From positions 1,504,001-1,568,000 of the forward strand of contig OZ251539.1 of the NCBI GenBank assembly GCA_965243135.1: a DNA stretch of 64,000 bases, given 5' to 3'. The DNA comes from Alphaproteobacteria bacterium. Its GTDB lineage: Bacteria > Pseudomonadota > Alphaproteobacteria > MPNO01 > UBA830. This document shows, piece after piece, positions 8,038-9,813 of the stretch (positions within the stretch are counted from its first letter, which is position 1; every line of letters starts with the position of its first letter). The translations under genes and the position numbers were made by a program. The notes beneath the pieces are model-generated. The model made no database searches. It saw only the letters and a list, made by a program, of their open reading frames with translations, and was not told the origin of the DNA.

Positions 8038-9813
8038 TCAAGGGGCCGAGAGCGTTATGCGGAACGCGTGATCGACGGAGGCGCGGGCCGCCGCCGCGGC
8101 AAGTCCGGCCTCGGTTCCGGCGCGAATTCGATACAGCGGCGCATCGCGGGATATCCGGTCGCCCGGGCGCGCCATGAGTTCGATTCCCGCGCCCTTGTCG
8201 GCCGGCGCGCCCGCGGCGCGGGCGATGCCCGCTAGTCGAAAGCAGTTCACGGCTTCGATTTCCCCGTCGGAGCCTGCCGCGACCTCGGCCGCGTGAATTC
8301 CGACGGCGACGGGTTCGGGAACGCGGCCTTGGGCGGAGATCATTCGCTGCAGCGTTTCGTGCGCGGCGCCGCCGTCCAGAAGATCTTGCGCCCGCTTGCG
8401 GGCGTCGGCCTCCGTCATGGCCGGATCGAAGCGGAGAACGGCCGCCGCGAACTCCAACGCCTTTTCGCGCAGGTCGGCCGGCGCGCCGGCGTCGTCGCGC
8501 AGCACCGCCAGCGCGTCGCGCGCTTCCAGCGCGGGTCCGACTCCCCGTCCCACCGGTTGGCGTCCGTTCGTCAGGCGAACGTCGAGCTCGAGCCCCAGCG
8601 CCAGGCCGACATGCAGGAACAGGTCGCGCAATTTCGTCGCCGCGGCCTCGCCGCGAACCTTGGCGGTGGGACCGACCGGAACGTCGATGACGCAGTGAGT
8701 GGCGCCGGCCGCAACCTTCTTCGACAGGATCGACGCCACCGACCATGCGAGAGAGTCGATCCGCCGCGGGCGGGTGATCGCGTTCATCACGTCGTCCACT
8801 CGCGAGTGGGTTAACCGACCGTTCCAGACGATGCATCCGTTGGTCTCGCGCACGACGCGCCGCACCGCGTCCGCGTCGAGGTCGACCCGCGCCAGAACTT
8901 CCATCGCGTCCGCGGTGCCCGCCGGGGACGTGATCGCCCGGGACGACGCCTTGGGAATCGTCATGCCGTGCGCCGCGACGATCGGAACCACGATCGGAGT
9001 GATCCGGCTTCCCGGAATGCCGCCCATCGAATGCTTGTCGGCGACGAGATCCGCTTCCCACGCCAGCCGCTGCGCGAACTCGATGCGGGCGCGCGCAAGA
9101 CTGACCGTTTCGTCTCTGGCGAGCGTGGCCGCGGTCGCCGCCAGAAAATCAGCGACTTCTCCGTCGTCGAAACGGCCGGCGACGATGTCGCCCAACGCCT
9201 CCCGATAGCCCCTGCAGTCGAGCCTCGCGCCGTTGCTCTTGCGAACGAACGGCGAAGGATGCGATCGCGTGCCGCGGCGAAGCGCGTCGACGAAGCGGTC
9301 GACTCCCTCCTGCACGGTTCCCTCGTTGACGATCGCAATGCGGCTCGCGCCATCCGGAATGTCGGGGGAGGGTCGCGAGAGACGGCGGGCGATGTCGGCG
9401 GTCGTCTCCCGGGATCGCCTCGAAAGGCGAGCGGCAAGGATTTCGGTCGGCGCGGTCACCTCGAGCAGGAGGACGGGGGAATAGCGCGCGATGGCCTGGC
9501 CGACGATTCCGCGCGAGACGTTCGCGACGACGTGACGGCCGGACGCGAGCTCGGTTTCGCAGGAGGCCGGTATGCCGTATTTCAATCCGTGCGCGTTCCA
9601 GTGAAGCATGAATCCGCCCGCGGCGAGGCGTTCCGCGAACGCGGTCCGGGACATCGCTTCGTGGCGCTCGCCTCCGGCGGCGCACGGTCGCGTGATGGCG
9701 CGCCGGACGAAAGCGTACCGGGGGTCGCCTGCGAGCGCGCTGCGCGCGCCGTCAATCAGGGTGTCCTTTCCCGCGCCGCTGGGACCGACGACCAGGACGA
9801 GCGTGCCGGACAT
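8038..9813 (-). CDS. phnN: Fusion of ribose-1,5-bisphosphate phosphokinase (PhnN) and AMP/NMP phosphorylase-type domain
   Basis: N-terminal ~180 aa: VVGPSGAGKDTL, RRAITRP, WNAHGLKYGIP, VANVSR (PhnN). C-terminal: DKHSMGGIPG, IPKASSRAITSPAGTADAMEVLA, ASILSKK, QPVGRGVGPALEA, DKGAGI (AMP phosphorylase type). One continuous ORF. Confidence 0.88.
   Translation of the reverse strand: MSGTLVLVVGPSGAGKDTLIDGARSALAGDPRYAFVRRAITRPCAAGGERHEAMSRTAFAERLAAGGFMLHWNAHGLKYGIPASCETELASGRHVVANVSRGIVGQAIARYSPVLLLEVTAPTEILAARLSRRSRETTADIARRLSRPSPDIPDGASRIAIVNEGTVQEGVDRFVDALRRGTRSHPSPFVRKSNGARLDCRGYREALGDIVAGRFDDGEVADFLAATAATLARDETVSLARARIEFAQRLAWEADLVADKHSMGGIPGSRITPIVVPIVAAHGMTIPKASSRAITSPAGTADAMEVLARVDLDADAVRRVVRETNGCIVWNGRLTHSRVDDVMNAITRPRRIDSLAWSVASILSKKVAAGATHCVIDVPVGPTAKVRGEAAATKLRDLFLHVGLALGLELDVRLTNGRQPVGRGVGPALEARDALAVLRDDAGAPADLREKALEFAAAVLRFDPAMTEADARKRAQDLLDGGAAHETLQRMISAQGRVPEPVAVGIHAAEVAAGSDGEIEAVNCFRLAGIARAAGAPADKGAGIELMARPGDRISRDAPLYRIRAGTEAGLAAAAARASVDHAFRITLSAP

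Follow-up and report, generated by a model that had tools for sequence, protein, structure and literature searches.

A 64,000-nucleotide stretch of the genome of an alphaproteobacterium (contig OZ251539.1, positions 1,504,001 to 1,568,000; hereafter the window) encodes a single polypeptide in which the ribose-1,5-bisphosphate kinase PhnN is joined to a phosphorylase of the archaeal AMP phosphorylase type, immediately downstream of nadC, the gene for quinolinate phosphoribosyltransferase. The pairing with nadC recurs in related loci, and the phosphorylase domains concerned form a clade of their own with altered residues. We tentatively propose, at just short of an even chance, that NadC, a phosphorylase acting on nicotinate mononucleotide (NaMN) and PhnN form a cycle that decarboxylates quinolinate to nicotinate while phosphoribosyl pyrophosphate (PRPP) is recycled. 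From domain families, gene linkage and residue changes we infer which nucleotide is split, which way the flux runs and what the cycle does for the cell.

Architecture and integrity of the fused gene

The fused open reading frame (ORF), its domains and motifs, and its partner gene are as follows.

8038..9813, minus strand: fused ORF, PhnN plus AMP-phosphorylase-type NP-II phosphorylase, 591 amino acids, no internal stop
9277..9807, minus strand: PhnN domain, residues 3-179 (TIGR02322)
9760-9786, minus strand: P-loop GPSGAGKDT of the PhnN domain, residues 10-18
8056..9246, minus strand: phosphorylase domain, residues 190-586 (NF003338; PDB 4ga5)
Residues 259-262, minus strand: DKHS motif of the phosphorylase domain
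8908-8952, minus strand: KASSRAITSPAGTAD of the phosphorylase domain, residues 288-302
9821..10714, minus strand: nadC (quinolinate phosphoribosyltransferase), the module partner (TIGR00078, 302.4 bits against 198.4)

Both halves of the uninterrupted chain exceed curated NCBIfam cut-offs. The PhnN domain scores 193.3 bits on TIGR02322 (cut-off 156) and covers profile positions 1-177 of 179, and the phosphorylase domain scores 523.3 bits on the subfamily model NF003338/PRK04350 (cut-off 434). In contrast, the equivalog models for thymidine and pyrimidine-nucleoside phosphorylases give only 103-168 bits against cut-offs of 269-571, and none is reached.

TIGR02643: 118.1 bits, cut-off 570.7
TIGR02644: 159.3 bits, cut-off 409
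NF004490: 167.6 bits, cut-off 269
NF004747: 102.8 bits, cut-off 559

This profile comparison, of PhnN and of AMP phosphorylase against the DeoA type, bears out the single-chain fusion that an initial annotation of the DNA had described. The same annotation read an AMP-phosphorylase signature in place of the thymidine phosphorylase one, and the alignments agree. KASSRAI stands where thymidine phosphorylases carry a KMSGRGL-type motif, and KASSRAITSPAGTAD pairs with KTSSRAITSAAGTAD of the Thermococcus kodakarensis AMP phosphorylase (4ga5/4ga6) and, in a HMMER alignment, with PMISGRGLGHTGGTLD of human thymidine phosphorylase (TP). Among solved structures the archaeal enzyme 4ga5/4ga6 is the best match (E 1e-72, query 178-579 on chain 80-485), followed by human and bacterial thymidine phosphorylases (E 1e-20 to 2e-30), while guanylate kinases are the sole matches to the N-terminal half. 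An AlphaFold (AF2) model of the fusion built from 35 relatives is confident (predicted local distance difference test, pLDDT, 91.1; predicted template-modelling score, pTM, 0.72), and Foldseek places 4ga5_A (E 9.7e-40) and 4ga4_A (template-modelling score by target 0.90, root-mean-square deviation 2.3) at the top of its matches. The model agrees with the archaeal AMP phosphorylase as the best match among solved structures.

The archaeal N-terminal domain of about 84 residues has no counterpart in the fusion, as 4ga5 is aligned from residue 80 and TIGR03327 from profile position 90. Judged by these alignments, PhnN stands where that domain sits in the archaeal enzyme, as initially noted, and this holds for the 591-residue protein. 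The fused architecture occurs in 121 cluster representatives (the query, P0001, and 120 among the matches listed), which span several bacterial classes and fall into two lengths, 570-609 residues in 76 of the 121, as here, and 670-709 residues in the other 45. The one long form that was scanned, P0074 (685 residues), keeps the N-terminal phosphorylase domain behind PhnN; it and the 500-residue phosphorylase of a related locus, L045, match TIGR03327 from profile positions 2-3. Of the 121 representatives, 116 keep the P-loop pattern. Databases name the fused relatives 'PhnN', 'thymidine phosphorylase' or 'multifunctional fusion protein', so that the fusion is already on record there, without an explanation.

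A stop or frameshift between the domains was looked for in contigs from public sequencing runs and none was found. A 7077-nucleotide contig of run X9 covers all 2677 nucleotides of 8038-10714 and differs there by 87 substitutions, without a gap. The domain junction near 9250 is also crossed by a contig of run X4 (8916-10137, 0 gaps); these two contigs stem from two other studies. For the four public runs aligned to the gene, 0 insertions or deletions were listed. Run X1 is identical to the gene region and may be its source. The region 8038-10714 or near variants of it occur in 12 listed runs from 4 studies, and several of these runs are labelled 'sponge metagenome'.

Linkage to nadC across related loci

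The stop codon of nadC and the start codon of the fusion are separated by a 7-nucleotide gap, with nadC upstream, and the window NadC carries both of its Pfam domains (QRPTase_N, 69.5 bits; QRPTase_C, 189.1 bits). For comparison, 117 loci with relatives of the phosphorylase were collected, 18 with PhnN and 99 without; the profile scans took in all long ORFs. PhnN is fused to the phosphorylase in 16 of the 18 PhnN-linked loci and is a separate, adjacent gene in L045 and L069. In 16 of the 18, nadC adjoins the phosphorylase; the two loci without it are L047, which has no upstream DNA, and L069, which has pncB-pncA instead. Among the 99 loci without PhnN, NadC stands beside the phosphorylase in none. 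In L045, nadC, phnN and the phosphorylase are three separate adjacent genes, a split counterpart of the fusion in the Rosetta stone sense, and the gene order is the same in fused and split forms. A NadC tree puts 16 of the module NadCs in a clade of 18 with support of 0.146, a loose grouping from which no conclusion is drawn.

The loci without PhnN have different company. Of the 96 that are bacterial, 58 carry a PRK07199-type Prs-like gene and 37 a beta-CASP gene, and both are absent beside the phosphorylase in all 18 PhnN-linked loci. These Prs-like neighbours were found with Pfam and NCBIfam; tblastn with the Prs of the window's genome missed them. Where these genes occur in the stand-alone phosphorylase loci (L059, L066, L078, L096, L102, L118 and others), the Prs-like gene follows the phosphorylase and the beta-CASP metallo-beta-lactamase (RNase-like) lies nearby. 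By its gene content, the stand-alone phosphorylase with its Prs-like gene appears to be a second, uncharacterised nucleotide-to-PRPP-type module.

The linkage data bear on whether the two domains work together at all. If they were uncoupled, or one of them inactive, the fusion would be a neutral accident beside a housekeeping nadC. Nothing speaks directly for this, but the fusion is without the archaeal N-terminal domain, which a 2013 structure paper on the T. kodakarensis enzyme (Tk-AMPpase) reportedly found to be needed for activity. We consider it very improbable, since the motifs of both domains are kept in 121 representatives of several bacterial classes, the gene order persists in fused and split forms with NadC paired in 16 of 18 loci, and the related strain of run X9 differs by 87 substitutions with no insertion or deletion. 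The architecture and chemical logic of the initial annotation, in which one domain would make what the other consumes, are supported: both domains exceed curated family or subfamily cut-offs, their catalytic motifs are conserved across the 121 representatives, and split forms have phnN and the phosphorylase as neighbouring genes.

A separate phosphorylase clade with altered residues near the predicted base site

In a maximum-likelihood tree of phosphorylase domains, the 18 NadC-linked domains (17 loci and the window) form one clade with support of 1.0, apart from 100 others. Signature columns were taken as those conserved within both groups and differing between them, where the others are the remaining sequences, including archaeal ones.

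Position 243: R in NadC-linked, M in others
Position 262: S in NadC-linked, C in others
Position 331: N in NadC-linked, G in others
Position 336: H in NadC-linked, L in others
Position 344: N in NadC-linked, I in others
Position 347: T in NadC-linked, E in others
Position 357: W in NadC-linked, Q in others

The first six of these positions, 243 to 347, are the near-invariant replacements of the signature. Counts among the 121 fused representatives are 121 for R243, 120 for N331, 118 for H336, 119 for N344, 119 for T347 and 116 for W357. The phosphate-binding and catalytic motifs DKHS, GGxPGxR and KxSSRAITSxAGTAD, together with S361 and K365, are common to both clades, and D259-K-H-S262, G264-G-x-P-G268-x-R270 and K288-x-SSRAITS-x-AGTAD302 are shared, at 90% or more, by the other clade and by the archaeal enzymes.

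The changed positions would lie around the base site. In the HMMER alignment N344 and T347 correspond to Tyr199 and Arg202 of human TP, flanking the conserved base-binding Arg348, and W357 lies beside Ile214; we take Tyr199, Arg202 and Ile214 to line the base pocket. By the secondary structure of the model, N331 follows the end of a beta-strand, and H336 and R243 lie on two crossovers between domains. The signature residues would thus be placed close to the substrate in the modelled enzyme. Their net effect is the loss of one acidic residue and the gain of an arginine and a histidine, which may have adapted the site to an anionic base, nicotinate for example.

The phosphorylase domain also falls under the cut-off of the AMP_phos equivalog (TIGR03327, 365.6 bits against 535). 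Because of this shortfall, the separate clade and the six near-invariant replacements, the nucleotide is probably something other than a generic nucleoside monophosphate (NMP). The initial description of an archaeal-type NMP phosphorylase stands for fold and subfamily; as a statement on the substrate it is weakened by the same three points.

The L069 phosphorylase is placed among the other sequences, outside the NadC-linked clade, and does not carry the signature. Its locus has four consecutive genes, pncB, pncA, phnN and the phosphorylase (L069:2723-6816), an operon that could convert nicotinamide mononucleotide (NMN) to NaMN by way of nicotinamide and ribose-1,5-bisphosphate. From this arrangement one might suppose that the fusion recycles NMN, for example from DNA ligase, to nicotinamide and ribose-1,5-bisphosphate, and that PRPP is then made for pyridine phosphoribosyltransferases. 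The L069 row would close an NMN-to-NaMN loop, and the two partner enzymes observed, NadC and PncB, are both part of NAD metabolism. For the fusion itself we find this improbable: a phosphorylase from the non-NadC clade without the signature says little about it, neither pncA nor pncB stands beside the NadC modules, and no PncB was found in the genome of the window (TIGR01514, tblastn), so that nicotinamide would not be reusable there.

Genome background

The window belongs to a genome on a single contig (G000; 6.1 Mb, 98.8% complete), in which the fusion is the only PhnN over the cut-off and the module NadC the only NadC match. Two routes are known by which ribose-1,5-bisphosphate is made or used, C-P lyase and RuBisCO, and the genome has neither: at 98.8% completeness, it yields no match to phnJ of C-P lyase (PF06007 PhnJ) and none to RuBisCO (PF00016 RuBisCO_large); ribose-1,5-bisphosphate isomerase was not searched for. 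Because there is no PhnJ and no RuBisCO, the PhnN domain serves neither phosphonate use nor the archaeal AMP-to-RuBisCO shunt, and both roles were rejected on these grounds. The missing phnJ bears on the genetic setting of the PhnN domain and not on its catalysis.

The initial annotation had taken the fusion to imply a PRPP source independent of Prs. That is probably not its purpose, as the genome has a normal Prs (375 bits) and the gene is tied to nadC and not to PRPP users generally. For the latter reason PRPP recycling inside a NadC cycle fits better than a net supply of PRPP.

NadA was not found in the genome, and the best matches to NadB models are under the cut-off. A 3-hydroxyanthranilate dioxygenase is encoded at C1:3449615-3450091 (254 bits, over the cut-off), and the best match to the kynureninase model reaches 219 bits against a cut-off of 246. 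Since NadA was not found and there is a single NadC, NadC must process tryptophan-derived or imported quinolinate, on which NAD synthesis in this organism, going by its gene content, probably depends. Three NicX-like genes (47, 40 and 36% identity) and one NicF-like gene (53%) lie away from the module.

Neighbourhoods of related modules

Genes for carboxylate uptake adjoin the pair in a number of the related loci. TctC is found beside it in 5 of 18 (L044, L046, L047, L133 and L134), TAXI-TRAP in L051, L052 and L135, an NMT1-type ABC transporter in L048 and L050, and an MFS transporter in L068. The regulators beside modules are of the MarR, LysR, GntR and AsnC types, and Pfam scans of the neighbours gave no Nudix/NadQ-type NAD regulator. 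Three modules are plasmid-borne. One module, on plasmid NZ_CP033971 of Cupriavidus pauculus, reads MarR-nadC-MarR-fusion-TctC-porin-Mo hydroxylase-TetR; after it come genes with the annotations N-carbamoylsarcosine amidohydrolase, 2,5-dihydroxypyridine 5,6-dioxygenase, alpha/beta hydrolase and Asp/Glu racemase, which we take to be the NicF, NicX, NicD and NicE steps of nicotinate degradation.

The arrangement nadC-'phnN'-TctC at L134, on a plasmid of Variovorax sp. SRS16, is the same as that of the Variovorax and Jezberella nadC-phnN-bug27 clusters described in the accessible part of PMC11452294. According to that text, the TctC proteins Bug27 and Bug69 bind quinolinate in vitro with sub-micromolar affinity, and the bug27 orthologues of Variovorax and Jezberella adjoin nadC and phnN, an adjacency that is read there as PRPP supply for NadC. 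The phosphorylase half of the phnN gene is unmentioned in this part of the source, in which 'thymidine phosphorylase' occurs 0 times.

A proposed quinolinate cycle

In the proposed cycle, NadC would join quinolinate to PRPP and decarboxylate the product, giving NaMN, CO2 and pyrophosphate, a step that is established chemistry. The phosphorylase domain, from a derived branch of the AMP/NMP-phosphorylase family, would then cleave NaMN phosphorolytically and so release nicotinate and ribose-1,5-bisphosphate, a predicted and new activity, and the PhnN domain, with ATP, would convert ribose-1,5-bisphosphate to PRPP. The last step is established PhnN chemistry and is assigned here by family membership. 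The net reaction would be quinolinate + ATP + phosphate to nicotinate + CO2 + ADP + pyrophosphate. Such a cycle would allow a large flux of imported or self-made quinolinate without a drain on PRPP, with nicotinate passing to catabolism or export, and the NadC of G000 must supply NaMN for NAD as well. It would account for the tie to NadC alone among PRPP users and for the fusion of kinase and phosphorylase. The changed base site, the transporters, the porin, the catabolic-type regulators, the plasmids and the one adjacent nicotinate pathway would likewise find a place in it.

Several points weigh against this proposal. Phosphorolysis of NaMN is unprecedented in the phosphorylase family, whose characterised relatives use AMP, CMP and UMP (according to the accessible part of PMC9700705), and the contact of the signature residues with the base is itself a prediction from alignment. 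The module NadC is the only NadC, with NadA not found, in G000, G243 and G401 (the genome of L008). Because the sole NadC must serve NAD, a co-expressed enzyme that splits NaMN would compete with NAD synthesis. Nicotinate-degradation genes are adjacent in only 1 of the 18 loci, with a weak NicE-like match (27% identity) in one more, and no such gene adjoins the pair in the window. Finally, phnN and the phosphorylase have pncB-pncA as their partners in L069, a setting in which phosphorolysis of NaMN would be futile; but that phosphorylase belongs to the other clade and is without the signature.

The AMP, CMP and UMP activities of the nearest characterised relatives would suit a different use of the same genes, in which such a generic NMP is split, PhnN makes PRPP from the product, and NadC salvages imported or tryptophan-derived quinolinate into NAD. 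The published reading of nadC-phnN adjacency as PRPP supply for NadC (PMC11452294, in its accessible part) agrees with this use. The sole NadC and the lack of a detected NadA in the three genomes, with the 3-hydroxyanthranilate dioxygenase of G000, mean that NadC is needed for NAD, and the Prs-like gene beside the other bacterial clade in 58 of 96 loci makes a link to PRPP look ancestral. Generic NMP feeding is the main rival, and we hold it to be somewhat less likely than the cycle. It leaves unexplained both the separate clade with its six near-invariant replacements around the base site and the fact that NadC is the only linked PRPP-using enzyme (16 of 18 loci). NAD synthesis needs little PRPP, a normal Prs is at hand, and re-salvage of the released base would cost one PRPP, with no net gain. 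A high flux is indicated by the plasmids, the porin, the regulators of catabolic type and the genes for nicotinate degradation next to a module. Between the two, we lean towards the quinolinate cycle.

Comparison with known systems

The fusion shares its fold and catalytic framework with the T. kodakarensis AMP/NMP phosphorylase (TK0352; 4GA4, 4GA5, 4GA6), including the motifs DxHSxGGxPG and K-x-SSRAITS-x-AGTAD. It differs in falling under the AMP_phos cut-off, in having PhnN for the N-terminal domain, in six signature replacements near the predicted base site, and in being linked to nadC, with no RuBisCO partner in the genome. The stand-alone bacterial PRK04350 'thymidine phosphorylase family' proteins have a phosphorylase domain about 50% identical that falls under the same subfamily model, and they too are linked to a PRPP-related enzyme. 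They nonetheless belong to a separate clade, carry the residues M, C, G, L, I and E, which would be ancestral, and keep the company of Prs-like (58 of 96) and beta-CASP (37 of 96) genes and never of NadC (0 of 99).

Like E. coli PhnN, the PhnN domain exceeds the TIGR02322 cut-off and has an intact P-loop. Unlike it, the domain is fused and not free-standing, has no phnJ in its genome and scores 107.8 bits on the E. coli-type model NF007485 (cut-off 153). In prs mutants, E. coli PhnN feeds PRPP into NAD synthesis (Hove-Jensen 2003, as described in the accessible parts of PMC9700705 and PMC11452294). The Bordetella quinolinate salvage locus nadQ-nadC-bug69 has NadQ and no PhnN, again as given in the accessible part of PMC11452294; in contrast to the Bordetella and Variovorax loci, neither TctC nor NadQ is next to the window pair.

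A parallel in logic to the proposed cycle is offered by the C-P lyase pathway, in which the substrate is put on ribose phosphate and processed and the sugar is returned as PRPP by PhnN. Both would recycle a phosphoribosyl handle through PhnN. In the proposed cycle, however, the processed group would be a pyridine ring losing CO2, released by phosphorolysis and not by cleavage of a C-P bond.

Neighbouring genes in the window

Upstream of nadC lie a UbiD-family gene and, between the two, an ORF on the opposite strand.

11247..12812, minus strand: UbiD-family decarboxylase, HmfF-like (TIGR00148, 264 bits against 244.85; PDB 6h6x/6h6v, E 4e-60)
10812-11189, plus strand: ORF of 125 amino acids with a gene-like GC content at third codon positions (GC3, 0.82); only match a sub-threshold YdhR-like one, 22.7 bits against 27.1

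The best solved relative of the UbiD protein is HmfF, a 2,5-furandicarboxylate decarboxylase; the window protein might act on a heteroaromatic, perhaps pyridine, dicarboxylate and, if the cycle operates, may trim other pyridine polycarboxylates into the quinolinate/nicotinate route. A UbiD gene is found upstream of nadC also in L008 (3712-5355) and L045 (2-901). Its membership of the module is uncertain: an opposite-strand ORF stands between the UbiD gene and nadC in both the window and L008, and the one at 10812-11189 probably parts them into two transcription units. Promoter and terminator predictions over 7800-11400 were uninformative (0 promoter-like sites, 1 terminator-like site; 2.4 would arise by chance).

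On the downstream side, a cyclase of PF04199, to which kynurenine formamidase and isatin hydrolase also belong, and a BKACE enzyme occupy 6120-8015 on the plus strand and converge on the fusion. The latter matches NF053538, '3,5-dioxohexanoate:acetyl-CoA acetone transferase', with 528.9 bits. The two genes are kept in L008, a locus 57% identical, where the BKACE enzyme is 92% identical and the UbiD, BKACE and cyclase neighbours are all present. No transporter is next to the pair in the window, the nearest TctC-like ORF being at 58978-60000, and the window ORFs scanned gave no NadQ/Nudix-type match.

Further along, 27882-58400 forms a catabolic island. It contains Mo hydroxylases (27882-31148 and 34739-37570), MoaA, a PF06684 protein, an isochorismatase-family hydrolase (41596-42312), TRAP and Tct transporters, a Rieske/VanA-type oxygenase, a family III CoA-transferase and an Amidohydro_2 (ACMSD-family) protein. 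At 2596-5988, 38420-40141 and 61053-62630 are a Fic-domain protein, an Rpn/YhgA-like putative transposase and two 'AAA-ATPase_like' proteins, one with PD-(D/E)XK; these genes around the catabolic ones are possibly mobile or defence-related.

Implications

The literature searched describes neither the fused enzyme nor phosphorolysis of NaMN, and broader searches on quinolinate degradation turned up no such cycle, though there may be an earlier mention elsewhere. The domains and the gene pair are already known; the clade, the signature and the cycle are the new proposals.

De novo NAD synthesis has quinolinate as its last free intermediate, and the breakdown of tryptophan and 3-hydroxyanthranilate leaves it as a dead-end by-product; a known bacterial route for its degradation begins with ring hydroxylation. 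We suggest, with a little less assurance than for the cycle itself, that PRPP serves here as a recyclable activating handle in a closed three-step cycle from quinolinate to nicotinate at one ATP per turn. If so, the bacteria concerned could use up or clear quinolinate, be it taken up from outside or a spill-over of 3-hydroxyanthranilate breakdown, and feed it into nicotinate catabolism. The nicotinate pathway would gain a new catabolic entry and, in NaMN phosphorylase, a new activity; phosphorolysis of a pyridine mononucleotide is not known from any other enzyme, so that the clade would be the first. The cycle would also add a new case in which a nucleotide handle acts catalytically. The annotation 'PhnN, phosphonate metabolism' would be corrected on hundreds of genes found in genomes without C-P lyase, and the presence of ribose-1,5-bisphosphate enzymes outside phosphonate use and the archaeal RuBisCO shunt would be explained.

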